A DNA stretch of 64,000 bases, taken from positions 63,219 through 127,218 of the forward strand of contig CAVRUU010000009.1 of the NCBI GenBank assembly GCA_963724515.1. The letters run 5' to 3'. This document shows positions 13,971 through 49,741 of this stretch, piece by piece. Numbering within the stretch: the first letter of the stretch is position 1; each line of letters starts with the position of its first letter. This DNA comes from Candidatus Eiseniibacteriota bacterium (lineage in GTDB: Bacteria; Eisenbacteria; RBG-16-71-46; SZUA-252). Both the position numbers and the translations under genes were made by a program. Below the pieces are notes generated by a model, which did not search any database, had not been told where the DNA came from, and worked only from the letters and a program-made list of their open reading frames with translations.

Positions 13971-13975
13971 CCAAC

Positions 13976-15600
13976 ATGGAAGCCGGCAGCATCGCCGCCC
14001 GAGCCGCCTCGCATCACGAGGCAGCCGCTCCTCACGCGAAGCCGAGGACGGGCATTCTCAAGTGGCTTCTGACCACCGATCACAAGCTGATCGGCGTCAT
14101 GTACATCTGGCTCGCGTTCTTCTTCTTCAGCATCGCCGGCGCCTTCGCGATGATCATGCGCGCCCAGCTCATGGGGCCCGGCCTCCACATCGTGCATCCC
14201 GAGGTCTACAACCAGATCATGTCCCTCCACGGGACGTTCATGATCTTCTTCTTCACGATTCCGGTCATGGCGGGGCTCGCGAACTACGTGGTCCCGATCC
14301 AGATCGGCGCGCGCGACATGGCCTTCCCGCGGCTCAACGCGGTGAGCTTCTGGATGCTCATCCCCTCGGGCGGGCTCATGCTGGCGAGCATGGTCCTCAA
14401 GGGCGGGGCCGCTGCCGCGGGTTGGACGAGTTATCCGCCGCTGACCGATCGCCAGTTCTCTCCGGGGCCGGGCGTGGATCTGTGGATCCTGGGGCTTCAC
14501 CTCGCGGGAGCCTCCTCGATCCTGGGTGGAATCAATTTCGTCGTGACGATCCTGAACCTGCGCGCTCCGGGCATGAAGCTCTTCAAGATGCCGATGTTCT
14601 GCTGGAACGTCCTGATCACGCAGACGATCATCCTCTTCGCGACCCCGGTTCTCGCGGGGGCGCTCACGATGCTGCTCACCGACCGCATGTTCGGGACGAG
14701 CTTCTTCCATCCTTCCGCGGGCGGGGACCCCGTTCTCTGGCAGCATCTCTTCTGGTTCTATTCGCACCCCGCTGTCTACATCATGGTCCTTCCGGGTATG
14801 GGAATGATCTCCCAGATCCTTCCGGCCTTCTCCGACAAGCATCTCTTCGGTTACAAGGGCATGGTCCTCGCCACGGCGGGGATCGGCTTCATCGGCTACC
14901 TGGTCTGGGGACACCACATGTTCGCGAGCGGAGTCGACTACCGGCTCCGCCTCTTCTTCAGCTTCGCGTCGATGGTGATCGCGGTTCCGACCGGCATCAA
15001 GATCTGGTCCTGGCTCGCGACGATCTGGGGCGGCTCGCTCCGGTTCAAGACGCCCATGCTCTTCGGGCTCGGCTTCATCGCGCTCTTCATCATCGGCGGG
15101 ATCACGGGCGTGTGGCTCGCGCTGGTTCCGTTCGATGTCCAGGTGCATGACACCTACTTCGTCGTCGCGCACCTGCACTACGTGCTCTTCGGTGGCTCCC
15201 TGATGTCGATCATGGCCGGGATGTCTACTGGTTCCCGAAGGGTCTCGGGGAGGCTGTCACCAGCGAGTTCTGGGGCGAGGCCTCCAGCTTCTGGTTCACG
15301 TTCATCGGGATGAACCTCACGTTCATGCCCATGCACCTGATGGGAATGCTCGGGATGCCGCGCCGCATCTACACCTACAAGCCTCAGTTCGCGGACCTGA
15401 ATCACATCGCGAGCGCGGGGGCCGCCGTCCTCGGGGTCGGGATGGCGATCTTCGTGCTCAACATGCTGCTGAGCCTCTGGCGCGGGAAGAAGGCTCCTCC
15501 GGACCCCTGGAACCACACGGACGAGACCCGCACGCTGGAGTGGACGGTCGGCTCACCCCCTCCGGCCGAGAACTTCCACACCATCCCGGTCATCCGCTAG
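13976..15600 (+). pseudogene. coxA: cytochrome c oxidase subunit I, A2-type (YSHPAVY), reading frame broken by a 1-nt deletion near 15224
   Basis: ORF 13865..15313 (from MEAGS at 13976) reads as CoxA up to ..HYVLFGGSLMSIMAGM. The rest (YWFPKGLGEAVTSEFWGEASSFWFTFIGMNLTFMPMH..) continues in the frame of ORF 15310..15600, starting at 15226. Confidence 0.85.
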
Positions 15601-16505
15601 AGAGGTCGGTCACGCGTCTCCCGAGCTTCTTCGTCGCGACGGTGGCGCTCGTCTTCGTTCTGGTCGTGTGGGGTGGGATCGTCCGCCTGACCGGCTCGGG
15701 CCTGGCGATTCCCGACTGGCCGCTGGCGAACGGGAGGTTCATCCCGTCCCCTGAAACGCGGGTCCTGATCGAGTTCACCCACCGCGTGCTGGCGATGATC
15801 GTGGGCCTGGCGACGCTGGGGCTCGCCGTCGCCGTCTACGGGAGCGCTCGCTACCGGCGCGCGCTGGGCGGCCTGATGGCGGCAGCCCTCGTGATCCTCG
15901 CGATCCAGATCTTGATGGGCGGCCGCGTCGTGCTGGAGGAGCTCAAGGTCGACCGGGTCGTCGCGCATCTACTGCTCGCGTTCTTCTTCTTCGGGCTCCT
16001 GCTCCGGATGACCCTCCGGGCGCAGGATGTTGCCCGCGCGGGGGAGGGAGCGGACGCGCTTGCGGGAACCGGCGTCAAGGGCGCCAAGGCGCTCAGGGCC
16101 TGGAGCCACGCCGCGGCTGGGCTCGTGTTCCTCCAGGCGGGTCTCGGAGCTTGGGTCTCATCCTCGGGAGCCGCGCTCGCGTGTCCCGATTTCCCTACCT
16201 GTCACGGCACGTTGTTCCCCAGAATGGAAGGTCTGGTCGGGATCCACTACGCACACCGGCTCGGCGCCTACCTGGTCTTCGCGGCCGTGCTCGGGCTCTC
16301 GCTCCGCGCCGCTTCGGCGCCGCTGCCCCCTCGGGCGCGGTGGCCGCTCCGGCTCGCGGGGGTGTTGGTGTCATTGCAGATCGTTCTCGGGGTCATGAAC
16401 GTGGTCCTGTCGCTGCCTCTCGCGGTCAGCGCGGGGCATCTGGCGACGGCGCTCGCGCTCTTCGGCACACTCCTGGTGGCGAATCATGAGCTTGCACGTC
16501 TCTAG
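15540..16505 (+). CDS. ctaA: haem A synthase (COX15/CtaA family)
   Basis: 8-TM ORF with GGIVRLTGSGL..PDWPL, conserved His residues (EFTHR, VAHLL, YAHRLGAY, GHLA) and CPDFPTCHG in the second half. Start uncertain: ATG 15540 overlaps coxA, and GTG at 15642 is an alternative. Confidence 0.8.
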   Translation: MDGRLTPSGRELPHHPGHPLERSVTRLPSFFVATVALVFVLVVWGGIVRLTGSGLAIPDWPLANGRFIPSPETRVLIEFTHRVLAMIVGLATLGLAVAVYGSARYRRALGGLMAAALVILAIQILMGGRVVLEELKVDRVVAHLLLAFFFFGLLLRMTLRAQDVARAGEGADALAGTGVKGAKALRAWSHAAAGLVFLQAGLGAWVSSSGAALACPDFPTCHGTLFPRMEGLVGIHYAHRLGAYLVFAAVLGLSLRAASAPLPPRARWPLRLAGVLVSLQIVLGVMNVVLSLPLAVSAGHLATALALFGTLLVANHELARL

Positions 16506-17364
16506 CTATATCCAGCTCACCAAGCCGCGGATCGTCCTCCTGGTGCTCGTCACGGCCCTGGCGGCTCTCGTGATGGAAGGCTCGCTGCTCGCCCATCCGG
16601 GCCGGCTCCTGCTCGTGCTCTTCGCGATCACTTTGGTTGCCGGGTCCGCGAACGCCTTCAATCAGTACTTCGAGCGGGACCTGGACGCGCAGATGGCGCG
16701 GACGCGCACGCGGCGGCCGCTCCCGCTGCGGCAGGTGTCGGCGCGAAGCGCGCTCTACTTCGCCGTGGGGATCGGTGCGATCTCGGTCGCGCTGTTATGG
16801 GTGGTGGGGAACGCGCTGAGCGCGCTGCTCGCTCTGGGGACGATCTTGTTCTATGGGTTCGGGTACACGCTCTGGCTCAAGCCACGGACAGTGCACAACA
16901 TCGTCATCGGAGGCGCTGCCGGGGCGATGGGTCCGGTGATCGCATGGGCCGCGGCGAGCGGGGGACTCACGCTCGCGCCGATCCTTCTCTTCCTCGTCAT
17001 CTTCCTGTGGACGCCCCCCCACTTCTGGGCGCTCGCGCTCTGCGTGAAAGAGGACTACCGCGCCGTCAAGATCCCGATGCTGCCCCTCGTGAGGGGGGAC
17101 GCGGAGACCTACCGCCAGATCGAGATCTACAGCGTGGGCTTGGTCGCGCTCACCCTGGCGATGCCGTTCCTCCGCACGGGCGGACTCGTCTACGCGCTGC
17201 TGGCGCTCGGGCTCGGCTGCGTGTTCGTCTGGAAGGCCGTCCGGGCGCGCAGACTCGCCACCGTGCGCTCGGCTTGGGAGGTGTTCGGATTCTCGATCCT
17301 CTACCTCTTCGTCCTCTTCCTCGGGCTGATCGCCGACGCGATCTGGCGCATCCCGATTCTCTAG
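16486..17364 (+). CDS. ctaB: protohaem IX farnesyltransferase (haem O synthase)
   Basis: 292 aa, YIQLTKPRIVLL.., UbiA-family motifs (NQYFERDLDAQMARTRTRRPL). Overlaps the ctaA end. Confidence 0.9.
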   Translation: MSLHVSSYIQLTKPRIVLLVLVTALAALVMEGSLLAHPGRLLLVLFAITLVAGSANAFNQYFERDLDAQMARTRTRRPLPLRQVSARSALYFAVGIGAISVALLWVVGNALSALLALGTILFYGFGYTLWLKPRTVHNIVIGGAAGAMGPVIAWAAASGGLTLAPILLFLVIFLWTPPHFWALALCVKEDYRAVKIPMLPLVRGDAETYRQIEIYSVGLVALTLAMPFLRTGGLVYALLALGLGCVFVWKAVRARRLATVRSAWEVFGFSILYLFVLFLGLIADAIWRIPIL

Positions 17365-36865: not shown

Positions 36866-38921
36866 CTAGTCCTGCCCCGCCAACCACGCGTCGAACTGCC
36901 TGAAGTCGTAGTCGCGTCCGAGAAAATCGTGAACCATGTCCCGCGCGGGACGAGTGCCTCCGGGTGCCAGCACCACGTCGCGATATCGCGTCGCGACGGT
37001 GGGGCTCAGTAGATCGGCCTTGTCGAACGCGCTGAACATGTCCTTCGAGATCACGAGCGACCACATGTAGGTGTAGTAGACCGCCGAGTAGCCGTCCAGG
37101 TGGCCGAACGAAGTCTGCATGTGCGAATCGGGCATCGGCGGCACCGGCGTGTACCTGGGCTCGAGGTCCGCGACGATCGCGTCGGTCACGACCTGGCTCG
37201 GCGGCCGGTTGTAGATATTCAGGGACACCGCCGAGTAGAACGCCTGGGTCGCCGTCGAGAGCGCGCGGCCGAACGCGTCCGCGCGGCGCATCTTCTTCAC
37301 CAGCTCCACTGGAATCGGCTCGCCGGTCTTGTAGTGCTTCGCGAAGGTCTGCAAGACTTCGGGATCCCACACCCACTCCTCGAGCATCTGGGAGGGGGCC
37401 TCGACGAAGTCGCGCTCGGTGGCCGTCCCCGCCACGGGCTCCCAGCGGCCCTGGCCGCCGAAGATCGCGTGGAGCAGATGGCCGAACTCGTGGAAGAACG
37501 TCTGGACGTCGGAGTGCTCCATGAGCCCCGGCTCGCCTGGCTTTCCGCCGGGGAAATTGCAGACGAGCGCGTGCTCGGGAATCTGGGTCCCCTTCACGCC
37601 CTGTCGGATGGTGAACTTCGCCGCGTGGTTGAACTTCCCGGGCCGCGGGTGGAGATCGAAGAAGAAACGCCCGATGAGCTTCGGCCCCTCGTAGACCTCG
37701 TACGCCTCGACCGACGGGTCCCAGACCGGGGCGTTCGTCACGCGCTTGTACCGAACACCGAACATCTTCGAGGTCACGTCGAGAACGCCCTGTTTCACGT
37801 TGTCGAAGGCGAAATACGGCCGCGCCTCCTGCGGATCGTAGTCGAAGTCGCGCTTCCGGATCAGGCGTCCGTAGTAGGAGACCTCCCAGCGGCTCACCTG
37901 AGTCGCGGAAGGATCGTCCTCCTGCCTGCGCTTCAGGTAGACCGCGTACTCCTCCTGGGCGCGCTTCATCGTGGTGTCGTTCAGGCGGGTGATGAAATCG
38001 GCCGCGTTCTTCGCGGTGCCGATCATCTTGTCTTCGGTGATGTAGTCCGCCCAGGTGTCATAGCCCAGGGTCCTCGCGACGCGGTAGCGCTTGGCAAGCA
38101 GCGAGTCGAGCACCGCGATGTTCGCGGGATAGGCGCGGTTCAGCGCTTCGTGCATGAGGCGCCTTCTGAGCTCGCCGCTCTTGGCGTAGCGGACCACGGG
38201 GATGTAGTCCGGGGTCTCGATGCTCAGCGTGACCTTGCCGTCGGCGCCGGGAGCATGCCCCTTGATGTAGTCTTCCGGCAGGCCCTCCAGCTCGGCGCTC
38301 TCCACCTGGATCTTCCGCGAGTCGGTCCGGATGTTCCGATCCCAGTCCTGGCCGGTCTTCACCAGCTCTTCGTAAATCGCGGCGATCTCCTTCCGCGTCG
38401 CCTCGTCCTTGTCCACGCCGGCGCGCCTGAAATCGCGGAGCGTGCGCATCATGAAATACCGGGTGGCGGGGTCCGACTTCGAGACGTCCACGCTCACCAG
38501 CGCGTCGTAGATGGCCCGGTTCAGGCTGAGGTCATCGAGGAATTTGCTGGCGGTCTGAGAGATTGCCTCCGCGGAGGATCGGAAGGCGGAGTCCGGGTGG
38601 ACCGCCTCGAGCAGGTGAGCCTGATAGGCGGCGTTCTCCCCGTGGGTCATCGCCTCGTTATAGACCGCGATCGTATTGTCGATCGTGCGCGGTCCCTTGA
38701 CCGCGAGGATCCGGTCGATCGCGCCTTGAGCCCTCTTGAGCTCCGCCTCGGAGGAGGCGCGGAAGGCGGCTGCGTTCGGATGTCCCGTGAAGAAGGCCGG
38801 AGCCGCGCGGCGAGCCGGCGCTCCTTTGGCTCCCGACGGCCGGGGACGTGAGGAGCACGAGGGCCAGCGTTGCGAGAAGCGCTTGAAGGAATGCGGCGCG
38901 ATGCGATCGGGATGAAGACAC
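36866..38921 (-). pseudogene. second M3-family oligopeptidase (paralogue of 28692..30797), with a frameshift between signal peptide and mature domain
   Basis: ORF 36866..38650 carries HEFGH (FFHEFGHLLHAIFGG). Its frame stays open and homologous upstream (..APAFFTGHPNAAAFRASSEAELKRAQGAIDRILAVKGPRTIDNTIAVYNEAM) but has no start codon. The GGAGG-GTG start (38921) and signal peptide lie in the frame of ORF 38658..38990. The frame switch is near 38821-38840. Confidence 0.8.
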
Positions 38922-38996
38922 GATGCCTCCTCTGGAGTGCCGGGTTGGTGTGGAGAGGAGGATCATGCCAGGGCCGGGCGCCCGCGGCAAGAAGGG

Positions 38997-40652
38997 CTAG
39001 AAGTTGAGGCCGAGCTCGGCCGCGAGCTCCTTGCCGGGACCTCCGTCGCGCCATTCGTGCGCGAGGGCGGCCCACAGACCGCCCGGGGAGTGATAGTCGA
39101 GCCCCGCGCGGACCCAGCGGGACCGGTAGGATGGCGTGGGAGTCGCGTCCAAGTCCGTGTTCGTTCCGCCAATCCCACCCGCGAGATCGATCTGGCTCCA
39201 GGGGCCGAGCCGGACCAGGAGTGAGGCGTCCCCGTTCACGCCGCTGAAGTGTTCGGCGTTGAAGCCCGTCACATGGAGGCCGCCCGATAGCTCCTTCAAG
39301 CCGAGCCGGCTGCCCGTGAGGCCCGTGTCCCAGGAACTGAAGATCTCGCCATCCCGGTCCCGGCGTCTGAGGTCTCCGCCCACGCGGAGCGCACAAGCGC
39401 GGGGAAGGCTCGCGCGCAGCGAGGCGTGCACGCCGGAGAAGCGATCGAGCATGATGGTGGAGGGCGCGAGGAGGTGCTCGGGGAGGAGCACGGCCCGCCG
39501 GGAGTCCGCGCTCACGGCGAGTGAAAGGCCGCGGCGCACGGGGAAATTGCCGCCCAGAGACAGGGCAGTCCACCCGAAGGCCGGCTCCCCGTGATCCCGC
39601 TTCCAACGTGGATTGAGATCGATCTCTGCGCTCTGGTAGAAGCTCGCGCCGGCTCCGTGTGTGTAATCGGCGCGTTCCATCACGTACTGGCGCCGGGTGA
39701 GCGTCGTGTCGCGCGAGTACACCCCCGCGACCAGGGCATGCCACCGGCGCGGAGCGAATGAGGCACGCGTTCCCGCCTCGACGTAGGCCCCAATCTGAAG
39801 CCCGCCCTCGGCAAAGCCGGCCGTTGCGAGATTCGCGCCCCGTCCGCCGCTCAATCCCGCGCCGAGCGACGGGCGGGGGCGCCAGTGGATGGCGGCGCCG
39901 TCCGTGTACCCGATTCCCTCGAGCCGCCGGGGCAGGATGCGCCCCGCCTCGACGTCGAGCCTTCCGCCCTGCGTCCGGTACCCGGCCGAAACCTCGTAGA
40001 TTCGAAGCTTCGACTCGCGGATCTCGGTCCCGGGAAGATCGGACACCGCCCGAATCACCGGGCGCGTGGCGCGCACGCGGAGCGTGGTCTGCTCGAGGGC
40101 TCTGCCCGACCACCGGACATCTCCGAGGAGGGAAGGGTTCTCGTACGTGCCGCCCGGGTCCGAAGTTCTCGTATAGAGGCTCGTGATCTGGCCGTGAACA
40201 CGTCCGGAACCGGACCCGAGGCCCCACCCCATCTCCCCGGACGGCTTCGCCCCGGAAACCGAGAGCCCTGTCGCGGGCGCTCGAGAGCTATCCGGGTAGG
40301 CGGCGGGTGTGGCGGTGGTGTCCTTCGGCGTGGCCGGAGAAAACACGGCGGTATCGCCGGCGCGCACGTCCTGCACAGACGATTCGACGCTGCACCCGGC
40401 GGAGTGTTCCGCAACGAAGACCACGGTTAGCCGCGCGATCTCCTTGCCGTTTCGCGTCACGGTCAGGCCCGCCCCCTCGGTCAGGCCCGCCGCGCGCCCT
40501 TGGTCGAGGTATACGTTGGACGCCGAGACGTACTGCACGCGCGCTGTAGCCGCCGAGGCGTCGCGCGGCCCGAGCGCCGCGGCGGCACAGAGCAGGAGCG
40601 CGAACGCCCGCGCTCCGCGCCGGCCCGCCGATGCCCGCGCGCCGTTACGCAC
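38997..40652 (-). CDS. putative outer-membrane beta-barrel protein (porin-like partner of the multihaem cytochromes)
   Basis: C-terminal part of ORF 38997..41687. GTG at 40652 overlaps the upstream stop (GTGCGTAA). Signal peptide ..AFALLLCAAAALGPRDASA. Alternating-hydrophobic, Gly/Arg/Tyr-rich sequence ending ..ELAAELGLNF (terminal Phe). Confidence 0.6.
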   Translation of the reverse strand: MRNGARASAGRRGARAFALLLCAAAALGPRDASAATARVQYVSASNVYLDQGRAAGLTEGAGLTVTRNGKEIARLTVVFVAEHSAGCSVESSVQDVRAGDTAVFSPATPKDTTATPAAYPDSSRAPATGLSVSGAKPSGEMGWGLGSGSGRVHGQITSLYTRTSDPGGTYENPSLLGDVRWSGRALEQTTLRVRATRPVIRAVSDLPGTEIRESKLRIYEVSAGYRTQGGRLDVEAGRILPRRLEGIGYTDGAAIHWRPRPSLGAGLSGGRGANLATAGFAEGGLQIGAYVEAGTRASFAPRRWHALVAGVYSRDTTLTRRQYVMERADYTHGAGASFYQSAEIDLNPRWKRDHGEPAFGWTALSLGGNFPVRRGLSLAVSADSRRAVLLPEHLLAPSTIMLDRFSGVHASLRASLPRACALRVGGDLRRRDRDGEIFSSWDTGLTGSRLGLKELSGGLHVTGFNAEHFSGVNGDASLLVRLGPWSQIDLAGGIGGTNTDLDATPTPSYRSRWVRAGLDYHSPGGLWAALAHEWRDGGPGKELAAELGLNF

Positions 40653-41730
40653 GGCGGTGACAGCTGTAGCAGGCGGAGCTGGCATAGACGTACCCCGAGC
40701 GACCCGTGTGCTGCGCATCGGTGCTGGCCTGGTTGTGCTCGTGGCACGAGAGACAGGTGAAGTCGGCGTAGGTCGCGCTGTTGGAATGGCAATCGGCGCA
40801 CGTGGTCCACTTGCCCTGATGCCTGCCCGAGTAGATGCGGAAGTAGAGGTTGTCGTGATCGAGATTCGCGGGACGCCAGGCCGTCGTGTTGTGGCAGGTC
40901 GCGCACGTCGTGGGATAGCCGGCCGCCGTGTGGTTCGGGTTTGCCGTCGCTGCGTAGTCCGCCTGATGGCACGAGTAGCAGTCGCGCGGGGTCCCGGAGT
41001 AACCGCCGCCCACGTGGCACCGCTCGCAGGCCACCGCCGCGTGCGCCCCCGTGAGCGGGAACCCGGTGAGCGCGTGGTTGAATCCCGCGCCGCCCCATCG
41101 GATCCGTCCCGGATCGTGGCATGCCTCGCAGAGCGTGGAGAAGCCGGCGGAGGCGTGGTTCGGAGTCTGGGTCGCGGCGTAGATCGACGCATGGCACGGG
41201 TAGCAGGCGCGCGAGAGCGGCGTGCGGTTCTCCTCTCCCGCGCCGACGTGGCAGCGGGCGCACTCGACGAGCGCGTGCATGCCGCGGAGCGGAAACCCCG
41301 TGCGGGCGTGCTGCGACACCGCCTGCGAGCGGTTCGTCCACCCGCGCGGAACGTGACAATCCTGGCAGCGGGTTCCCACCCGCCCTTCGTGCACGTCGTG
41401 GTGGCAATCGTTGCAGCTCGTGGCGACTCTCGCGAACTCGAGCGATTTGTGACATCCCACGCAATCCGCGGACGCGTGCTTTCCGATGAGGTCGAAGCCG
41501 GTGCTCGCGTGGCGGAAGAGGAGCGGCCTCCGCAGCTTGCTCCAGGATTTCGCCGTGTGGCACGCCTCGCACTCCGTCTTGAGCGCGCCATGAGGGTTGG
41601 CCACGGTCGGAGCGGCGGGCCGTTCGCGGGCCGCCGTCCCCGCGGTTGCGCCCTGCGGAGCGGCGGCGAGCGCGGCGAGAATCGCAAGGCAGGTCATCGG
41701 GCGCGCGAGGAAAGCGACGGCTCTCTTCAT
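40645..41730 (-). CDS. multihaem cytochrome c, 13 CxxCH motifs
   Basis: 361 aa. Signal peptide. I count 13 CxxCH. Repeated H..TGFPL.G.H....C..CH modules (cytochrome c7/c3-like). ATGA overlap with the upstream gene. Confidence 0.9.
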   Translation of the reverse strand: MKRAVAFLARPMTCLAILAALAAAPQGATAGTAARERPAAPTVANPHGALKTECEACHTAKSWSKLRRPLLFRHASTGFDLIGKHASADCVGCHKSLEFARVATSCNDCHHDVHEGRVGTRCQDCHVPRGWTNRSQAVSQHARTGFPLRGMHALVECARCHVGAGEENRTPLSRACYPCHASIYAATQTPNHASAGFSTLCEACHDPGRIRWGGAGFNHALTGFPLTGAHAAVACERCHVGGGYSGTPRDCYSCHQADYAATANPNHTAAGYPTTCATCHNTTAWRPANLDHDNLYFRIYSGRHQGKWTTCADCHSNSATYADFTCLSCHEHNQASTDAQHTGRSGYVYASSACYSCHRRA

Positions 41731-43217
41731 GTCCGGCTCCGATCGGGCGCGGGGCGTGTGGCGTGGCAGGCGCGACAGGCCGTGTCAAGGGGACGGTATC
41801 GGACCGTGCGGCGGCCGCCGATCACCTGGAGCTTGTGGCAGGCCGCACAGACCGAGCGCGCGTGAGCGCCCTCGAGCGGGAATCGGGTCTTCTCGTGATT
41901 GAACGCCGCGCCGCGCCAGGCCCGCTCGCCGTGACAACGGTCGCAGCCGGTTCCGCCGCGCGCGGCGGCGAATTGTCCGGCGTGCTCGTCTTCGTGGCAA
42001 TCGGCGCACGCGACCGCCTTGAGCCGGAACTGGACGCTCCCGGGCGCCGCGTCCTTGGCGGTCGGACGATGGCACGAGACGCATGCCACCGCGAGGTGCG
42101 CCCCCCGCAGCTGGAACCTCGTCTTTTCGTGCTCCTGGAAGCCGAAGCGAGCGGGGGTGAAGCCATCGACGGAGTGGCACGCCTGGCACGCTCCGGCGCT
42201 CGCGCTCTTGGCGAGCTGCCCTCCGTGCCGGTCGCTGTGGCAATCGACGCATCGCGCGAAGGCGATCCGCTTCTTGAAGTTCCCTTCGACGTGGCAGCTC
42301 GCGCACGCGACGCGGCGATGAAGGCCGAGCAGGGGATAGTTCGTGCGGTCGTGGTTGAAGGCTCCGGGCGCGATCGCGCTCCAGCCCGCGGTCGTGTGGC
42401 AGCGTGTGCAGTCCGCCCCGTAGCGATTCCGGTGAGGGTCGGTGTGGCAGTCGACGCAGACGCCGTGGGGAAGCGGGTGATATCGGACGAACGCGCTCGC
42501 CGCGCCGGCCGGCGTGGCCGAGCCCTCCTCGGTGACGCTGTGATGGCAGCGCTCGCATCGAACCTGCGCATGGAGGCCGGTGAGCGGGTACCCCGTCTTG
42601 TCGTGATCGATCGAGACCGGCTTCCACGCGAGGGCGTTGTGGCATGAGGCGCAGTCCCCTTCGGCCACCCGGGCCGCGAATTGTCCGCGGTGGACGTCGG
42701 TATGGCAGTCGGCGCATCGGGTCGAGAGCCCGAGATAGGTGCTGTCGGATTTCAGAGTTGTGGCGGCGCGGACATCGGCCGCGCGGACGAGCGCGGGCGC
42801 GTGGCACGTGCGGCAGCGGACCGCGGCGTGCTTGCCTTCGAGCGGGTAGCCCGTGAGCGAATGGTCGAACGAATCGGGTCCGCCGGGCCAGGACACGAGG
42901 ACTGCCTCGCGGCCTCCGTGCTCGGCGTGGCAGGGAGCGCACAGCGTCGCGCGGCTCTTGTCCCGTCCGTGATAACCGCGCCCGGCCCGGATCCGGACGG
43001 CGAGCTCCTTGTGGCACGCGAGGCAGCGCACCGCCGTGGTGGATCGCTTGGGCTCATGGCAGTCGAGGCAGGCGGTCGTCTTGTCGATCGCGGCGTGGGA
43101 TTGCGAGAGCGGGCCGGGCGAGAACTGGGCGCGGGCGGTCGCGGGTGCGATCATGAGTGCCGCCGCGGCTGCGGTCCAGAGGATCGCGCGGTCATGTCTA
43201 GCCCTGCGGCAGCGCAT
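41727..43217 (-). CDS. multihaem cytochrome c, 17 CxxCH motifs
   Basis: 496 aa. Signal peptide ending ATARA-Q. I count 17 CxxCH. Repeated F.H..T.YPL.G.H..V.C..CH modules. Start overlaps the upstream gene by 20 nt. Confidence 0.9.
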   Translation of the reverse strand: MRCRRARHDRAILWTAAAAALMIAPATARAQFSPGPLSQSHAAIDKTTACLDCHEPKRSTTAVRCLACHKELAVRIRAGRGYHGRDKSRATLCAPCHAEHGGREAVLVSWPGGPDSFDHSLTGYPLEGKHAAVRCRTCHAPALVRAADVRAATTLKSDSTYLGLSTRCADCHTDVHRGQFAARVAEGDCASCHNALAWKPVSIDHDKTGYPLTGLHAQVRCERCHHSVTEEGSATPAGAASAFVRYHPLPHGVCVDCHTDPHRNRYGADCTRCHTTAGWSAIAPGAFNHDRTNYPLLGLHRRVACASCHVEGNFKKRIAFARCVDCHSDRHGGQLAKSASAGACQACHSVDGFTPARFGFQEHEKTRFQLRGAHLAVACVSCHRPTAKDAAPGSVQFRLKAVACADCHEDEHAGQFAAARGGTGCDRCHGERAWRGAAFNHEKTRFPLEGAHARSVCAACHKLQVIGGRRTVRYRPLDTACRACHATRPAPDRSRT

Positions 43218-44082
43218 AGCCGAGCCATATCGCGACCCCGATGTGGACGCCCATCATGAGGAACAGCACGATCGTGAACGGCTTGTGGATCGCGTGCCAG
43301 TAGTGGAACAGGGCCGATGTCTGGCGCAGGAACGCCCGGCGCCGCTCGAGGAGAAGCCGCCGTCTCGTGAGCGAGCGGACGCGCCGCGCCTCGGCGCGCC
43401 CCAGATGGCGGACGGCTCCCGGCTGGCGCGCGAGGCCCAGGGCCCCGACCATCCGGAGAAGGTCCTGACCCAAAAGGTAGAAGAGGCTCCCCAGGAGGCT
43501 CATGCCCTCCGCGCGGTCGGCCCCGGAGCGGCGCCGCAGGCTCTGGAGATCGGAGACCGCGAACCCGTGCCGCTCGGTCAGCTCACGGTCCAGCTCCTCG
43601 AGCTCGAGCGTCAGGGTCTCGGAATCCTGGTCCGCGACCGAGAGAGCGCCGCCGACCTGGCGCAGCAGGTAGTAGCCCACGAAGCCGCTCAGCATCACGC
43701 AGACCATCGCCCAGTACCCGATCGCGATCGCCCCCGTGATCTTGAAGCTGGAATGGAGCGTGATCATCGCGGGCCCGGCGATGCCGCAGAAGATGTGGGC
43801 GTTGAGCCATCGGTTCAGCAAACCGACGCGACGGAGCCACGGGACCCGCTTCCGAACCGAATAGAGGAGGAGCAGCAGGATGAACCCGGTCCCGACATAC
43901 CCATAGAGCAGCCCCAGCCCGCCGTTCGGCCGGAGCGCCGCGTGCGCGGGGGCGTGGAGCCGTTCCGCGAGGCCGAGGCGGTAGTATGGGAAACCGTAAT
44001 AGAAGAGACAGACCCAGGCCGTGAAGGAGACGAGGTAGAGCGCGACCCGCACCCGGGAGCGCGGCACTGATGCGCGTGGCAT
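43198..44082 (-). CDS. 5-TM membrane protein with two H-x13-H helices (putative dihaem b-type transmembrane electron carrier)
   Basis: ORF 43198..44178. ATG at 44082 is preceded by GAGG. Hydrophobic segments at about residues 44-64, 86-107, 121-142, 148-172 and 296-322 (ORF numbering). His128/His142 and His298/His312 each have 13 intervening residues. Confidence 0.55.
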   Translation of the reverse strand: MPRASVPRSRVRVALYLVSFTAWVCLFYYGFPYYRLGLAERLHAPAHAALRPNGGLGLLYGYVGTGFILLLLLYSVRKRVPWLRRVGLLNRWLNAHIFCGIAGPAMITLHSSFKITGAIAIGYWAMVCVMLSGFVGYYLLRQVGGALSVADQDSETLTLELEELDRELTERHGFAVSDLQSLRRRSGADRAEGMSLLGSLFYLLGQDLLRMVGALGLARQPGAVRHLGRAEARRVRSLTRRRLLLERRRAFLRQTSALFHYWHAIHKPFTIVLFLMMGVHIGVAIWLGYALPQG

Positions 44083-44138
44083 CGGACGCCTCGCGGGGGA
44101 GGGCGCTGAGGCGGGCAGGACCGCGCGCGCGACGCCGC

Positions 44139-45473
44139 TCACGCGGACCTCGAAGCCGGCGCGGCGCGGGGGGCGCATGGCGGCTCGCCGTAGTAGGTCT
44201 TCGTCGCGACGCCGATCTTCTCGAGGAAGCTCGTGGGGAGATCGCCTCCGATCAGGACGAAGACGTGATCATTGGGAATCCACTGCTCGCCCGAGTCCGT
44301 CCGGAGCAGGACGCGGTCCTTCTCGATGAGGCGCGCCTCCGACCGGAGCACGACCTGAAGCGATGGTCCGCGAAGCTCCTCCAGCCGTGCCAGATTTGCC
44401 TCCGCGATCCGGGTGAAGCGGTCGCCGCGGTAGCTCAGCACCACCTGGGCGCCGGCGTCCGCGAGCGAGATCGCGGCCTCGAGCGCGCTGTTGCCCCCTC
44501 CCACGACCAGCGCGCGCCGCGCCGCGAATTGTTCGGGCTCGATGAGGCGATACGCGACCTTGGAGCTCTCCTCCCCGGGGATGCCCAGCTTGCGGGGACT
44601 GCCGCGTCTTCCGGTCGCGAGAACGACGCGGCGCGCGAGGGTCTCGCCGCCGCTCCACTTCAAGCGGAACACGTCTCCGACGCGTTCGATTTCCGAGACG
44701 CGGACGCCTCCGCGCAGCTGGAGATCCGCACGGCCAACCACGTGGCTCCAGTACTCCACGAGGTGCTCCTTGCTGATCTCGCGAAAGTCCATCGTTCCGA
44801 CGATCGGGAGTTTGACCGGGGCGGTCATCACGAGCTTGCGGCGCGGATAATGATGGACGCTTCCACCCAGTCCCTCCTGATCGAGGATGAGATGGCTCAT
44901 CCCACGCTCCCTGCACGCCAGCGCGGCGGCGATGCCGGCGGGACCCGCCCCTACGATCGCGACCTCCACCGCGCTCGCGTGGCGGCCGGGGCTCGCGCTC
45001 AGCCCGCGGACGACGTCGATTCCCTGGGAGACGGCCGTTCGAATGAGACCGAACCCCCCGAGCTCGCCGGCCACGTAAATCCCGCGGACGCTGGTCTGAA
45101 GGTCCTCGCCGAGAAGGGGCACGAGCACGCCTCGTGTGGCGGTGCCGAAGACGAGCTCGATCGCCAGCGTCGGGCAGACGGTCTTGCAGCGGCCGTGTCC
45201 CACGCAGTGGGACGCGTTCACGAGTCGGGCGCGCCCGTCGATGACGCGAAGGACGTCCTCCTCGGGGCAGGCCTCGACGCAGCTGCCGCATCCGATGCAG
45301 AGGGATGGATCGATGCGCGGGTGAAGGGACGGCGGATCGTCGAAGCCCATGGCTCCGGCGCGCGCGACCGCCCTCCTCGCGCTGCGCTGGCGCAGGTATT
45401 CGAATCCCACGCCGGCCGCAGCCACGGAGGCGAGAGACGCGACGACCGAGGCCGTCGTGAAATCAATCGTCAC
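44139..45473 (-). CDS. membrane-anchored 2x[4Fe-4S] ferredoxin domain fused to an FAD/NAD(P)-dependent (thioredoxin-reductase-like) oxidoreductase
   Basis: 444 aa. GTG start preceded by AAGGAG. N-terminal TM followed by an Arg-rich stretch. CIGCGSCVEACP and CVGHGRCKTVCP. Dinucleotide motifs VAIVGAGPAG and LVVGGGNSALE. Confidence 0.8.
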   Translation of the reverse strand: MTIDFTTASVVASLASVAAAGVGFEYLRQRSARRAVARAGAMGFDDPPSLHPRIDPSLCIGCGSCVEACPEEDVLRVIDGRARLVNASHCVGHGRCKTVCPTLAIELVFGTATRGVLVPLLGEDLQTSVRGIYVAGELGGFGLIRTAVSQGIDVVRGLSASPGRHASAVEVAIVGAGPAGIAAALACRERGMSHLILDQEGLGGSVHHYPRRKLVMTAPVKLPIVGTMDFREISKEHLVEYWSHVVGRADLQLRGGVRVSEIERVGDVFRLKWSGGETLARRVVLATGRRGSPRKLGIPGEESSKVAYRLIEPEQFAARRALVVGGGNSALEAAISLADAGAQVVLSYRGDRFTRIAEANLARLEELRGPSLQVVLRSEARLIEKDRVLLRTDSGEQWIPNDHVFVLIGGDLPTSFLEKIGVATKTYYGEPPCAPRAAPASRSA

Positions 45474-45516
45474 GGTCAGCTCCTTGCGAGGCTATGGAAC
45501 GGATGGGGTCCCCCAC

Positions 45517-45526
45517 GGTGAAATGC
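45517..45526. repeat. 10-nt direct repeat GGTGAAATGC, copy 1, in the leader of the 45473 operon
   Basis: Exact 10-mer also present at 45638-45647. Both lie in the 225-nt intergenic region upstream of the operon (GCATTTCACC on the operon strand). Confidence 0.5.
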
Positions 45527-45637
45527 TGCAACGTACATGCCACAGAACGCGGCGGGGAGCCCCCTCGCAACGTGATTCATGACAAGCGGAAGCGGACCGG
45601 GGGCCGTCCGGAGACAAGCGGCGTGCGCGGGACGAGT

Positions 45638-45647
45638 GGTGAAATGC
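45638..45647. repeat. 10-nt direct repeat GGTGAAATGC, copy 2
   Basis: Exact copy of 45517-45526, 121 nt away. Confidence 0.5.
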
Positions 45648-45698
45648 ACGCCGGGGTTCAGCCGCGCCCCACACCGTACTGAAGGACGAGGGCTGTGC

Positions 45699-46157
45699 TT
45701 ATGACTTCCGACGTAGCGGCTTCTGGAATTTGTGCTGCGACTTCACGATGGTATAGCCGAGATTCTGGTAGAACTTGTGCGTCTCGAGCCGGATGGTGTT
45801 CGAGCGAAGGCACATCTGTGTATAACCCCGCTCTCGCGCCCACGTCTCGGCGGCCGCCATGAGGGAGCGGCCGATGCCCCGGCCGCGCGCGCTCGAATCC
45901 ACGACCAGCCCGCCCACTTCGGCCGCCCCCTCCGACTCCATGAGGTGGCGCCCGAACACGTGCAGCCATCCCCAAACCCGGCCGTCCGGGTCCGAAGCGA
46001 CGAGTACCCGAGAGTCGGGATCCCCCTCGATAGCCCGGAACCGCGCCTCGATCTGGGCGGGTGTCGAGGGGTAACCCAGCTCGCCGGCAAGGGCCGCGAC
46101 CTGCTCCACGTCATTCCCGGTCATCCCGCGCACGGTCGTTGCTATACTGCCGCTCAT
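45699..46157 (-). CDS. GNAT-family N-acetyltransferase
   Basis: C-terminal 152 aa of ORF 45699..46310, from MSGSIA. Acetyl-CoA motif VVDSSARGRGIGRSLM and C-terminal FYQNLGY. Confidence 0.85.
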   Translation of the reverse strand: MSGSIATTVRGMTGNDVEQVAALAGELGYPSTPAQIEARFRAIEGDPDSRVLVASDPDGRVWGWLHVFGRHLMESEGAAEVGGLVVDSSARGRGIGRSLMAAAETWARERGYTQMCLRSNTIRLETHKFYQNLGYTIVKSQHKFQKPLRRKS

Positions 46158-46614
46158 GAAGCGCGTTCCCTCAGGGTATTGGATCGCTTTCGCCGCGGCG
46201 GCGGTTGTATCCGTTTTCTCCTCGGCCCAGTGCGCGCAGGACACGAGCCGGCTCACGCCGGAGCAGGAGGCGCGGTTGGGCAAGGAGGGGGTGTTGCGCC
46301 GCGCGGACAACGTCGTCTTCCACTACACGCGCGATCACGGATATCGCAGGGAAGAGACCCGCGAGTACCGGCGCGCGTCCATCATCGTCACGCCGCGCTC
46401 CGTCCTCATCCACAAGAACGAGAAGGTCGGACTCGAAATCCTCCCCGGATCCCAGCGCTCCTACGACGTGCACCGGCGCGCGACACGCGTTCTGATCCAC
46501 GCGGGAGGCGAGAAGACCGGGGAGTTGTGGTCCTTCGAGCCATCCACGGACGCCGAGGGCTGGACCCGCGACATCCGCGCGGTGATCCGGAGCGGTCCCG
46601 CTACCGGAGGGTAG
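46156..46614 (+). CDS. hypothetical secreted protein
   Basis: 152 aa. Signal peptide (WIAFAAAAVVSVFSSAQ). No motif recognised. Its start codon overlaps the divergent GNAT start (CATG). Confidence 0.5.
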   Translation: MKRVPSGYWIAFAAAAVVSVFSSAQCAQDTSRLTPEQEARLGKEGVLRRADNVVFHYTRDHGYRREETREYRRASIIVTPRSVLIHKNEKVGLEILPGSQRSYDVHRRATRVLIHAGGEKTGELWSFEPSTDAEGWTRDIRAVIRSGPATGG

Positions 46615-47122: not shown

Positions 47123-49741
47123 ATGCCGTTCCGACTACCATCCAATATCGGTTCGAAGAGGGTCGCTCTTTACCGGGCCGGAGCGTTTTTTATCGTATCC
47201 CTCGCTCTGGCACCCGGTTCCAGCCAGGCTTCGTTCAAGTCCTTCGTCCCCGGCGGCGACGGCGTGGTGTTTCCCAGCGCAGCGGACGGAAGGGCGACCC
47301 CGGCGCCCTCGATCCAGGCTTACCACTTGTCCGGCGGCGAGCACATCAAGCTGGACGGGCGTCTCGACGACCCCGCGTGGGAGAAGGCGGAGGCGGGGGG
47401 CGGCTTCAAGGTCTGGGAGCCGGATCGGGGCACGATGCCGACCGAGGAAACCGTCTTCAAGGTCGCCTATGACGAGGACGCGGTCTACTTCGGGGTCGCC
47501 TGCCAGGAGAAGGACCCCTCCAAGGTGACGGCGCGGCTCTCCCGCCGCGATCGGTTCAGCAACTCCGATATCGTGAGCGTCTACATCGATCCCTATCTCG
47601 ATCACACGACCGGCTACAACTTCAAGGTGAACCCGCTCGGCGTGCTGCTCGACGGGTACATGTACAACGACGGGGACCGCGACGACAACTGGGACGCGGT
47701 CTGGGAAGCCCAGACCTTCCGCGACCAGGATGGCTGGTACGTGGAGATTCGCGTTCCGTTCTCCGCGATCCGGTATCGCACGGCCGAGTCGATGACGTGG
47801 GGCCTCGAGGTCTATCGCTACATGCACGGGCGCGGCGAGGATACGGCATGGGTGACCTGGGACCGGGCCGAGAAAGGCTTCGTGAGCCGCTTCGGGCAGC
47901 TCACCGGGATCCGGGGAGTGCCGTCGCCACGGCAGCTCGAGATCATGCCGTACGTGGTGGGGAGGGCCACCGACCCCTCGACCCTCGGCAAGGAGAAGGT
48001 CGACAAGTTCGAGAACGTGGGGGCGGATCTCAAGTACGGGGTCACCGCCGACCTCGCCCTGAACGCGACGGTGCAGCCCGATTTCGGGCAGGTCGAGGCG
48101 GATCCCGCCACACTCAACCTCTCGCCGTTCGAGACCTTCTACGACGAGAAGCGCCCCTTCTTCATCGAGGGGAGCCGCCTCTTCCAGCATCCGGACTTCA
48201 ATCTCTTCTACTCACGCAGAATCGGCACGGGAGATCCCAACTCACGCATCCGCTACGCTGCAAAGCTGACCGGGAAGGCGGCGGGTAACGCCACGATCGC
48301 CACTCTCATCGCCTCGAGCGACGTCACGGGACGCGGGCAGGCCCACAACCTCCTGAAGAACGGCGATCGGCTCTCGCGATTCTTCGTGGGCCGCTTCGGG
48401 AAGCAATTCAACGGCGGCCGCCAGCAGTTCAACATCATGGGGACGGCGGCCCTGAACACGGCGAACCGCGACGTGTTCGGCGAATTCGCCTCACGCGAAG
48501 CGTACACGTCCGGGGTGGATTTCGATCTCTTCTCGAAGAATCGCACCTACAACATCCAGGGATCGATGGTCAGCTCCATCATCGATCCCGAGGGCTCCGC
48601 GATCGATTCCACCGTCGACGGAGCGAAGCGCTACGGCTCGGGCGGGTCGCTCGATATCCGAAAAGTCGGAGGCAAGTGGCGGACGGGCGTGAACGGACGC
48701 TGGGAGTCCGCGAAGCTCGACATCAACGACCTCGGCTTCATCGAGTCGCCGGACGAGATGGGCTTCAGCGGGTTCATCACGAACATCTACAACCCGGAAG
48801 GGAAGAGCAAGACCTGGAACCAGGGAAACCTGAACCTGAACTTCTGGAAGAACTTTCTCTACGGCGCGCGCAAGGGATACGACATCAGCACCGGTCAGGA
48901 GGTCTGGGCCTACAGCCGCGGGCACAGGCAGTGGATGGGCGCCGAGCTGAACGGCTGGAGGCAGTTCCGGGACTACCGCGAGATCTGGTGGGGAACGAAC
49001 TACCAGAACGAGGGAACGCGCCGGTACGAGACCCGCGGCGGGCCTCTGATGCGCGAGCCGGCGACCTATGGCGGATGGCTCGGCTACAAGACAGACACCC
49101 GGAAGAGCCTGATCCTCTCGATCGAAGGGAACCATTTCCGCGACACGTCGCTCAATCACGACACGAACGGCACGTTCGGGGTCGTGTGGAACCAGAGCAG
49201 CGCCGTGAACCATGATCTCGAGCTCGAGTTTCACAACCGGCAGGACGACACGCAGTACCTGGCGACGGTGGTCTCCGCCTCTCATCCCGGAGCACAGGGG
49301 ATCGGCGGGCTGAGCTATCTCTTCGGGAGGATCCACCAGCAGACCGCGAGCCTCACGCTCCGGACAAATCTATTGTTCAGCCGCGACAAGTCGCTCGAGA
49401 TCTACGCCCAGCCGTTCATCACCGTGGGGGACTACAGTGAGGTTCGAGAGCTGATCCGGCCGGACTCCTACGACTTCATCCACTTCATGGATCCGGCAGT
49501 GAATCCCAAGGACTTCGACTTCAGCTTTACCGCGGTGAACTGGAACGTGGTCTACCGCTGGGAATACCGTCCGGGGAGTGCCTTCTTCCTCGTCTGGACG
49601 CAGAGCCGCTCGGAATTCGACGAGCGGGATTTCCACCCGACGCCGGGGTCGTTCAAGAACGATATACGGCTGAGCAGCCTCTTCCGGAACGAGGCCGAGA
49701 ACAAGGTCCTCGCCAAGCTAACGTACTGGTTCGCGATCTAG
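47123..49741 (+). CDS. CBM9-like domain plus DUF5916 outer-membrane protein
   Basis: 872 aa. Signal peptide. N-terminal region LDGRLDDPAWEKA..F...EP......T.FKVAYDEDAVYFGV.. typical of carbohydrate-binding family 9/DOMON-like modules. Long beta-rich C-terminus ending ..LTYWFAI. Confidence 0.65.
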   Translation: MPFRLPSNIGSKRVALYRAGAFFIVSLALAPGSSQASFKSFVPGGDGVVFPSAADGRATPAPSIQAYHLSGGEHIKLDGRLDDPAWEKAEAGGGFKVWEPDRGTMPTEETVFKVAYDEDAVYFGVACQEKDPSKVTARLSRRDRFSNSDIVSVYIDPYLDHTTGYNFKVNPLGVLLDGYMYNDGDRDDNWDAVWEAQTFRDQDGWYVEIRVPFSAIRYRTAESMTWGLEVYRYMHGRGEDTAWVTWDRAEKGFVSRFGQLTGIRGVPSPRQLEIMPYVVGRATDPSTLGKEKVDKFENVGADLKYGVTADLALNATVQPDFGQVEADPATLNLSPFETFYDEKRPFFIEGSRLFQHPDFNLFYSRRIGTGDPNSRIRYAAKLTGKAAGNATIATLIASSDVTGRGQAHNLLKNGDRLSRFFVGRFGKQFNGGRQQFNIMGTAALNTANRDVFGEFASREAYTSGVDFDLFSKNRTYNIQGSMVSSIIDPEGSAIDSTVDGAKRYGSGGSLDIRKVGGKWRTGVNGRWESAKLDINDLGFIESPDEMGFSGFITNIYNPEGKSKTWNQGNLNLNFWKNFLYGARKGYDISTGQEVWAYSRGHRQWMGAELNGWRQFRDYREIWWGTNYQNEGTRRYETRGGPLMREPATYGGWLGYKTDTRKSLILSIEGNHFRDTSLNHDTNGTFGVVWNQSSAVNHDLELEFHNRQDDTQYLATVVSASHPGAQGIGGLSYLFGRIHQQTASLTLRTNLLFSRDKSLEIYAQPFITVGDYSEVRELIRPDSYDFIHFMDPAVNPKDFDFSFTAVNWNVVYRWEYRPGSAFFLVWTQSRSEFDERDFHPTPGSFKNDIRLSSLFRNEAENKVLAKLTYWFAI

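Follow-up and report, generated by a model that had tools for sequence, protein, structure and literature searches.

The proteins of the ferric reductase domain (FRD) superfamily carry four histidines on transmembrane helices (TM) 3 and 5, with the first histidine of each helix holding the cytoplasm-proximal haem (PMC3591440). Binding of haem b has been shown experimentally for DUF4405 and FezC, which are structurally related to MsrQ and the PepSY-type cytochromes (PMC11334425). Among systems of extracellular electron transfer (EET), passages in Shi et al. (PMC4245776) describe a 'distant Pcc' (porin-cytochrome) cluster of Ignavibacterium album, IALB_1838-1840, in which IALB_1838 has 400 amino acids (aa) and 14 haems and IALB_1839 is porin-like, and a section of Fortney et al. 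(PMC6137239) reports Pcc-like systems in Ignavibacteriales, Melioribacter and Caldithrix. Listeria-type flavin-based EET is mentioned in PMC11323493. Here we describe a 64,000-nucleotide stretch of DNA (the window; G+C about 67%) from Candidatus Eiseniibacteriota bacterium (assembly GCA_963724515.1, contig CAVRUU010000009.1, positions 63,219 to 127,218), which carries on its minus strand, from 45473 to 38997, five tightly packed open reading frames (ORFs), one of them encoding a predicted five-helix, four-histidine membrane protein of an unannotated family.

To our knowledge, all characterised Gram-negative EET routes start at the quinone pool (CymA, ImcH, Cbc proteins). We consider it probable, on balance, that the five-helix protein of the window is a dihaem cytochrome b serving a dedicated, quinone-independent export of electrons from NAD(P)H to a chain of 30 c-type haems and an outer-membrane (OM) protein, an arrangement resembling NOX or FRE split into separate subunits. 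This reading is carried by the near-invariance of the four histidines, by a gene set that persists through rearrangement, and by the replacement of one NAD(P)H flavoprotein by another at some loci. The genes of the set, with the iron-sulfur domain of the flavoprotein, are as follows.

44139..45473, minus strand: flavoprotein of 444 aa with a hydrophobic N-terminal anchor (Pyr_redox_3, E 9e-43; Fer4 families)
45144..45320, minus strand: Fe-S domain of the flavoprotein, aa 52-110, with the motifs C59xxC62xxC65xxxC69P and C90xxH93xxC96xxxC100P (alignment of 56 orthologues)
43198..44178, minus strand: the ORF under study, 326 aa, a predicted 5-TM dihaem cytochrome b of an unannotated family
41727..43217, minus strand: cytochrome c of 496 aa with 17 CxxCH motifs and a signal peptide (Cytochrome_C7, E 2e-22)
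40645..41730, minus strand: cytochrome c of 361 aa with 13 CxxCH motifs and a signal peptide (Pfam); its ATGA start overlaps the preceding stop
38997..40652, minus strand: OM-like protein of about 550 aa with a signal peptide and the C-terminus ...ELGLNF; start at GTG 40652 or ATG 40685

The four junctions, in gene order, are a GTGA, a 20-nt overlap, an ATGA and an 8-nt overlap, which suggests translational coupling of all five genes. The cytochrome b probably starts at GTG 44142 (Val13), giving a product of 314 aa: there a GTGA overlaps the TGA stop of the flavoprotein (44139-44142, minus strand), GAGG precedes it, and close homologues begin at this point. The original prediction from the sequence, which had singled out this protein as a membrane carrier of two b haems, numbered its histidines correctly from the ATG at 44178, but the end coordinate that it gave, 44082, corresponds to Met33 and does not match that numbering. 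A long plus-strand ORF that overlaps the gene (43009..44070) was rejected as a high-GC antisense artefact because hundreds of homologues conserve the product of the minus strand.

The pattern on which the prediction turned, two helices each with a pair of histidines separated by exactly 13 residues, is confirmed in the translation, with His128 (codon 43795-43797) and His142 (43753-43755) lying in NAHIFCGIAGPAMITLH, and His298 (43285-43287) and His312 (43243-43245) in IHKPFTIVLFLMMGVH. At least two such pairs arise in 2.5% of shuffled versions of the sequence, and therefore the pattern in a single sequence is only suggestive; the matter was decided by conservation across homologues. In an alignment of 237 of these, with a median identity of 34% to the window protein, H128 and H142 are conserved in 100%, H298 in 97% and H312 in 96%, alongside H295 (93%) and W294 (98%), the exceptions being mostly alignment gaps. 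All four histidines are near-invariant in homologues down to about 25% identity. The same holds for G132, G135 and P136 of TM3, for S164, G165 and G168 of TM4, and for a Y106-x-x-R109-K110 motif at the cytoplasmic end of TM2 (Y106-S-x-R109-K110-R in the window protein), and a YY..R..P.G motif is conserved in the periplasmic loop between TM1 and TM2.

The family so defined is large. A word-indexed search returned 124 homologues, none of which has a Pfam domain or any name beyond 'hypothetical', the named sources among them being Candidatus Eisenbacteria, Vicinamibacteria and Bacteriovoracaceae, and a hidden Markov model search of 1.84 billion cluster representatives (50%-identity clusters) found 4817 members at E<=1e-3 and 1028 at E<=1e-30. 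Some members are as short as 183-206 aa (P0220, P0241, P0253) and keep both H-x13-H pairs while the cytoplasmic insert between TM4 and TM5 is absent; therefore, the five-helix, four-histidine core is the conserved unit, with the insert an accessory that the core does not need. An AlphaFold2 model of the short variant P0220, built without an alignment, had a predicted local distance difference test score (pLDDT) of 60.7, too low for a fold search. Two apparent fusions, of the cytochrome b with a cytochrome c (P0257) and of a Fer2 domain with the cytochrome b (P0233), look like frameshifted gene calls and were retained as evidence of adjacency only.

Hydropathy agrees with an AlphaFold2 model computed from an alignment of 42 sequences (mean pLDDT 87.7; predicted template-modelling score 0.73) on five transmembrane helices, at residues 40-66, 87-111, 121-143, 150-175 and about 294-320.

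43846..44061, minus strand: TM1 (40-66), the periplasmic loop and TM2 (87-111) (AlphaFold2, conservation)
43750..43818, minus strand: TM3, aa 121-143, with W124-x3-H128-x13-H142 and the conserved G132, G135 and P136 (AlphaFold2 helix)
43654..43731, minus strand: TM4, aa 150-175, with conserved W156, M158, V161, S164-G165 and G168, forming a small-residue face (AlphaFold2, alignment)
43300..43653, minus strand: TM4-TM5 insert, aa 176-293, Arg-rich, variable in sequence, predicted cytoplasmic and all-helical (AlphaFold2, lysine and arginine counts)
43219..43299, minus strand: TM5, aa 294-320, with W294-H295-x2-H298-x13-H312 (conservation)

The N-terminus has 10 lysines and arginines, the TM2-3 loop 6 and the TM4-5 domain 20, as against 3 for the TM1-2 loop, 1 for the TM3-4 loop and none for the C-terminus. 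This distribution places the N-terminus and the TM4-5 domain in the cytoplasm and the C-terminus in the periplasm, with TM3 and TM5 running in-to-out; together with the AlphaFold2 model it supports the earlier proposal that both histidine-bearing helices run outwards from an inside N-terminus, as in NOX. All four histidines fall within predicted transmembrane helices by hydropathy and in the model. The charged loop of some 120 residues that had been noticed between TM4 and TM5 is present (aa 176-293, with its 20 basic residues) and all-helical in the model, where helices spanning 179-258 are followed by one long helix, 261-319, that continues into and ends as TM5, the block as a whole having a pLDDT of 80-97. 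The chain ends 6 residues beyond this helix, so that there is no TM6.

On these predictions the inner, cytoplasmic-side haem would probably be held by H128 and H298 and the outer haem by H142 and H312. The choice of H298 over the additional H295 as the partner of H128 follows from the W-x3-H-x13-H pattern common to TM3 and TM5. In a test for an internal repeat between the TM2-3 and TM4-5 hairpins, the two helices align in register on this pattern with an E of 0.099, which is not significant. His295 itself (43294-43296, minus strand) is a fifth conserved histidine, 3 residues before His298 and adjoining Trp294 at the cytoplasmic membrane face. It is surplus to the four-ligand model, and it could be a relay, a contact for a haem propionate or an alternative ligand.

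The company kept by the cytochrome b provides a second line of evidence. The flavoprotein combines a ferredoxin domain of the 2x[4Fe-4S] type with a TrxR/YpdA-like FAD- and NAD(P)H-binding portion; it matches the NCBIfam YpdA-like model at E 1e-46 yet far below its cut-off. Both of its dinucleotide-binding motifs and both Fe-S motifs are conserved in orthologues. In the second cluster motif His93 takes the place of the second cysteine, and it is 98% conserved in the 56 orthologues, so that this motif may hold a His-ligated [4Fe-4S] or a [3Fe-4S] cluster and may form the exit of electrons towards haem b. Electrons leave [NiFe]-hydrogenases for their cytochrome b by a surface cluster with a His ligand, a parallel that makes the His93 cluster a plausible exit port. 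As to the nucleotide preferred by the flavoprotein, the conserved S-Y-R after the second Rossmann motif would allow no more than a guess.

Beyond the membrane, the multihaem cytochromes have weak NCBIfam matches to HmcA, QrcA and NrfH, and neither a CxxCK catalytic-type haem motif nor an extra cofactor domain was found in either of them. They are the only two CxxCH-rich ORFs in 38997-45473, and neither has a lipobox, so that no outer-surface lipoprotein cytochrome of the OmcB/MtrC type is seen there. Large periplasmic cytochromes may span the OM without a surface lipoprotein cytochrome, as a passage in Shi et al. (PMC4245776) notes. The last gene of the operon directly follows the 13-haem gene in the window and its closest relatives. 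Its product can be taken as a putative porin-like beta-barrel partner of the 13-haem cytochrome because of its signal peptide, its C-terminal aromatic residue and this conserved adjacency; its orthologues end in G(Y/F)RF or RL, and one of them has a faint OMP_b-brl match. Pfam and NCBIfam scans of the protein and four orthologues gave only a weak FlgT_C match, in the N-terminal domain. This small domain (40300-40560, minus strand; ARVQYVSASNVYLDQG...VFVAEHSAGC...) is conserved at two other loci (L023 and L049), with the FlgT_C match at E 6e-4 in orthologues, and may be a periplasmic plug or docking domain.

The five genes recur together across a wide range of bacteria. Distant homologues, at 35-36% identity, lie among the same five genes, differently ordered. 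Among GTDB species representatives, 581 loci were found; the statistics of gene context come from the best 80 of these, most similar to the query, and may differ family-wide. The best 80 derive from Eisenbacteria, Krumholzibacteriia, Zixibacteria, Calditrichota (including a metagenome-assembled genome (MAG) of Caldithrix abyssi), Ignavibacteria, Thermoanaerobaculia and other Acidobacteriota, Marinimicrobia, WOR-3 and a Prosthecochloris MAG. When the window genes were sought by tblastn, 44 loci had enough flanking sequence, and in these both cytochromes c were found in 44, the flavoprotein in 42 and the OM-like gene in 40, on the same strand and in at least six gene orders. By a script count, the 17-haem orthologue lies in the cluster at 67 of 69 loci and is immediately downstream on the same strand in 57. 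That the set is kept through such rearrangement argues that it is a functional unit.

The composition of the cluster varies around this set. In a green sulfur bacterium, the Prosthecochloris vibrioformis MAG (L078, 5335-16045), the OM-like gene was not detected, the other four genes of the set being present; the direction of electron flow may differ there. Many loci (e.g., L001, at 6684-7982 and 10603-11193, and loci of Ignavibacteria such as L018, at 13574-16538) have extra genes inside the module: those for a Big_7-domain protein and a TPR protein and, separating the 13-haem from the OM-like gene, an unassigned one of some 3 kb. These insertions may be lineage-specific extra components, possibly with surface cytochromes among them. 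In the window, the operon is flanked downstream by an M3-type oligopeptidase (HEFGH; 36866-38650, minus strand) and upstream by a GNAT-like acetyltransferase (45699-46310, minus strand), neither of which is conserved beside the module elsewhere. A little upstream of the operon region, 47123-49741 on the plus strand encodes an 872-aa secreted protein that ends in ...KLTYWFAI and looks like a large OM or surface protein, with no obvious link to the operon. A scan of 38400-46000 for promoters and terminators gave nothing informative.

The third line of evidence comes from loci with a different reductase. At L087 (657-4317), a gap of 2 nt separates the short member P0241 (206 aa) from an upstream reductase of 409 aa with FAD_binding_6, NAD_binding_1 and Fer2 domains, for which the ferric-reductase NAD_binding_6 model is a match too; directly after P0241 comes a multihaem cytochrome of 602 aa. 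L088 (1-1987) has part of the same arrangement, and in the frameshift-ridden contig L085 the cytochrome b has the same Fer2/NAD_binding_1 neighbour; of these three loci with an FNR-Fer2 partner, two have the short variant and one the long. Thus, two unrelated NAD(P)H flavoproteins, each with an Fe-S domain, occupy the same position, which suggests that the cytochrome b is fed by a cytoplasmic NAD(P)H-dependent Fe-S flavoprotein; this replacement is the strongest computational support for such an electron intake. NOX and FRE have a module of this FNR type fused to their haem domain, and the presence of such a module beside the cytochrome b makes the analogy concrete. That the TM4-TM5 insert serves as the adaptor for the Fer4-type flavoprotein, a docking role of the kind first proposed for the loop, is only suggested by this distribution.

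A relationship of the cytochrome b to known haem proteins is discernible in weak profile matches. Individual members were scanned against Pfam in two sets, 42 at E<=10 and 143 representatives at E<=0.01. In the first, DUF4405 was matched by 39 of the 42, Ni_hydr_CYTB by 27 and Ferric_reduct by 23. In the second, DUF4405 was matched by 46 (best E 5.7e-6), Ferric_reduct by 23 (best 2.8e-5), Ni_hydr_CYTB by 11 (best 1.3e-5) and PepSY_TM by 4, every other family being confined to one or two of the 143. These recurrent families are all transmembrane haem-b proteins. Positions 1-61 of the Ferric_reduct profile align to TM2-TM3 and DUF4405 aligns to TM2-3 or TM5; Ni_hydr_CYTB aligns to the C-terminal helix only (profile positions 132-168). 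Cytochrom_B_N was absent from all Pfam scans of members, and the operon contains no Rieske or cytochrome c1/f partner. An hhalign comparison of the family with E. coli MsrQ, alone or as a low-diversity alignment, gave a probability of at most 1.3% and has low power, the MsrQ profile being uninformative (relatives all at >=77% identity; effective number of sequences 1.4). In light of these matches the cytochrome b of the window is regarded as a divergent relative of the FRD/DUF4405 haem-b group that stands outside every curated family. The proposal that it carries two b haems, with which the original prediction began, is thus supported by the conservation and membrane placement of the histidines, by weak matches to haem-b families and by the adjoining NAD(P)H flavoprotein, all of it drawn from sequence and structural modelling.

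These elements can be assembled into a candidate pathway. The membrane-tethered cytoplasmic flavoprotein would oxidise NAD(P)H at its FAD and hand the electrons, by way of two Fe-S clusters of its own, to the inner haem b (H128/H298); the outer haem b (H142/H312) would receive them across the membrane. The periplasmic 17-haem cytochrome c would take them up and hand them to the 13-haem cytochrome, which with the OM protein would deliver them to an extracellular or outer-surface acceptor. The multihaem cytochromes would thus take the place of O2 or Fe(III) as the acceptor, and the quinone pool would be bypassed. Both the redox span and the membrane potential would favour outward flow, yet the potential would be consumed and not built. 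As outward flow dissipates the potential, the system may be read as a redox-balancing vent and not as an energy-conserving respiration. Evenly balanced, in our judgement, is the wider proposition, its taxonomic range included, of a widespread quinone-free, non-conserving 'split NOX' entry module for EET, with its reductase swapped between a Fer4 plus TrxR-like and an FNR-like plus 2Fe-2S form, occurring across the Fibrobacterota-Chlorobiota-Bacteroidota (FCB) superphylum (Ignavibacteria, Calditrichota, Zixibacteria, Eisenbacteria, Marinimicrobia and some Chlorobi) and in Acidobacteriota.

Several observations weigh against the proposed NAD(P)H-fed export. The window protein has no Pfam or NCBIfam match above threshold; its best sub-threshold matches are Ni_hydr_CYTB (E 0.18, 12 bits) and DUF4405 (E 0.44), with no Ferric_reduct at E<=1. 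None of the 143 members tested exceeds the curated gathering score of Ferric_reduct (PF01794, 28 bits), DUF4405 (PF14358, 26.7 bits) or Ni_hydr_CYTB (PF01292, 30.1 bits), the top DUF4405 score among the 42 being 25.3 bits (E 2.2e-5). The family has five transmembrane helices as against the six of the FRD domain with its TM2-TM5 core; on account of this difference in helix number, and with no threshold reached, it was not placed in a curated family. Searches of PDB sequences with a full-alignment profile and with an insert-free profile of the transmembrane core gave no relevant match, and a Foldseek comparison of the AlphaFold2 model with the PDB returned at best unrelated long-helix proteins at E 0.74; these searches have low power, and no similarity to the solved FRD structures (NOX5 transmembrane domain, SpNOX, STEAP) emerged from them. 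On the side of gene context, 2 of the 44 well-flanked loci have no flavoprotein gene in a range of 10 kb, and P0120, the most distant of the members examined (from Bacteriovoracaceae, at 25% identity), is without the module context. The OM location of the last gene product is one that we infer from its termini and its adjacency only. A vent might suit fermentative or organotrophic sediment bacteria, but the benefit is conjectural as the potential is dissipated. Finally, a quinone site is conceivable, the FRD protein MsrQ having been reported with ubiquinone according to a passage in PMC12525009.

In a quinone-linked alternative, which we consider unlikely, (mena)quinol would be the electron donor of the cytochrome b, as it is for NarI, FdnI and the CbcL b domain, and the 17-haem cytochrome its acceptor. 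The flavoprotein would then feed a local pool as an NAD(P)H:quinone reductase resembling NDH-2, or be functionally separate. The Listeria flavin-based system pairs a dedicated NADH dehydrogenase with quinone, and the flavoprotein of the window belongs to the same broad class of two-dinucleotide flavoproteins as NDH-2; however, NDH-2 has no need of the conserved two-cluster ferredoxin domain that the flavoprotein carries. The weak Ni_hydr_CYTB matches point to a family of quinone-reactive cytochromes b, but the ligands lie on two helices as in the FRD proteins and not on three as in FdnI. Known inner-membrane entry points of EET are quinol dehydrogenases, as described in passages of PMC4245776; against this stand the translational coupling of the flavoprotein and cytochrome b genes and the substitution of a different reductase with a 2Fe-2S domain elsewhere, which argues for protein-to-protein transfer from Fe-S cluster to haem.

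A second alternative accepts the inner-membrane portion and changes the periplasmic end: the route would stop in the periplasm, where the multihaem cytochromes would be reductases or an electron store for a soluble substrate such as nitrite, sulfur or selenium species, and the last gene would not encode a conducting porin. The putative OM protein belongs to no recognised family and c7/c3-type multihaem cytochromes also occur in periplasmic reductase systems; however, the operon cytochromes lack both the CxxCK motif and the cofactor domains that were looked for. The OM-like gene directly follows the 13-haem gene and stays in the cluster at 40 of 44 loci, and its product has the signal peptide and the C-terminal aromatic residue typical of barrels. 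Comparable clusters of Ignavibacterium, Melioribacter and Caldithrix are, moreover, classed as porin-cytochrome in the pertinent passages of PMC4245776 and PMC6137239, and we take this alternative to be improbable.

Reverse flow, from an extracellular or periplasmic donor (Fe(II), a syntroph, a cathode or reduced humics) to NAD(P)+ or another cytoplasmic acceptor, is quite improbable in our estimate. Haem and Fe-S chains are reversible in principle, and one member comes from the Prosthecochloris MAG (L078), a genus for which electron uptake from Geobacter has been reported. The absence of an extracellular lipoprotein cytochrome from the cluster is a feature read elsewhere as 'oxidiser-like' (PMC3903129; a passage in PMC6137239). 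On thermodynamic grounds, however, inward electrons would oppose the inside-negative membrane potential and the reduction of NAD(P)+ at about -320 mV would be strongly uphill from most environmental donors, and the cluster contains no energy-coupling subunit.

That the histidines bind another metal (di-iron or copper), or that the protein is a transporter or sensor accompanying the cytochromes, is highly improbable, for while no family threshold is reached and the conserved His295 creates an HxxH at the membrane face, the i/i+14 pairs on two parallel helices with conserved small residues around them, the haem-b identity of all recurrent weak matches and the presence of electron-transfer neighbours for both sides of the membrane speak against it.

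Returning to the proposed NAD(P)H-fed dihaem carrier, its affinities with known systems can be traced from the outer membrane inwards. The window module resembles the Pcc and MtrAB-like systems in that a cytochrome of about 13-14 haems adjoins a porin-like gene in the same phyla, the OM proteins being compared by description only, and differs from the Pcc in that its cluster has no outer-surface lipoprotein cytochrome. It is probable that the reported Pcc-like clusters of Ignavibacterium, Melioribacter and Caldithrix are this same module. Neither the cytochrome b nor its connection with the flavoprotein is mentioned in the passages on them in PMC4245776 and PMC6137239 or in the non-subscription literature searched; if the proposal is true, these would be the missing inner-membrane half of the clusters.

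A parallel might also be struck with the Listeria Ndh2-demethylmenaquinone-EetAB-PplA pathway, which combines dedicated cytoplasmic NADH oxidation with the export of electrons for redox balance in fermenters, unlike the window system in its use of quinone, a flavinylated lipoprotein and a Gram-positive envelope with no haem chain. Among the Gram-negative donors, CbcL and CbcBA contain a dihaem b domain. With these and with CymA and ImcH the window protein would share the place of an inner-membrane donor to periplasmic multihaem cytochromes upstream of a porin-cytochrome module, as that place is described in passages of PMC4245776. In contrast to it, they are quinol dehydrogenases of the NapC/NirT or FdnI/HydC type; the window protein belongs to none of these types and is coupled genetically to a cytoplasmic NAD(P)H flavoprotein. 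If the proposal is true, an NAD(P)H-fed, NOX-like dihaem gate would be set apart in its bioenergetics, as a vent for electrons that conserves no energy. The disposal of reductant onto minerals, humics or partner cells by abundant fermentative or organotrophic lineages of sediments and the subsurface (Zixibacteria, Calditrichota, Ignavibacteria, Eisenbacteria and Thermoanaerobaculia) could be explained in this way, and an unannotated family of thousands of members would gain a role.

As regards the cytochrome b itself, the prokaryotic cytochrome b561/Ni_hydr_CYTB proteins (FdnI, HyaC, CybB) are set apart by their four helices and by ligands spread over three of them as against two here; a quinone site is also part of their architecture. 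The cytochrome b of the bc1 and b6f complexes has the same H-x13-H spacing on helices B and D, and the window protein has no sequence membership in that family. The DUF4405, FezC and PepSY_TM (FoxB-like) proteins are nearer, with four central conserved histidines and transmembrane electron transfer, haem binding being a prediction in the present case; DUF4405, in contrast, has six helices and is accompanied by ApbE/flavinylation or ferrosome genes, where the present cytochrome b keeps company with multihaem cytochromes and an Fe-S flavoprotein in a gene cluster that showed no apbE.

The closest analogues are the FRD proteins (NOX, FRE, the bacterial NOX, MsrQ/YedZ and STEAP). Common to both are four histidines on TM3 and TM5, an H-x13-H on TM3, a TM5 pair whose spacing (13 residues here) falls in the canonical 12-13, histidine-bearing helices that run in-to-out from an inside N-terminus with the first histidine on the cytoplasmic side (PMC3591440), and the input of electrons from an NAD(P)H flavoprotein. 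In the present family this flavoprotein is the product of a separate gene, associated by adjacency, and is of the FNR type at L087 and L088. In the window it has the TrxR/YpdA-like fold with 2x[4Fe-4S], and the membrane protein bears an insert of 120 residues between TM4 and TM5; moreover, the acceptor would be a multihaem cytochrome c as against O2, Fe(III) or MsrP. What is known here can be classified as a predicted transmembrane bis-His dihaem carrier of the FRD/DUF4405 type, and what is new as its family, the arrangement of its subunits and its acceptor; if the proposal is true, the evolution of the NOX/FRE type would extend to a split, multi-subunit prokaryotic form.

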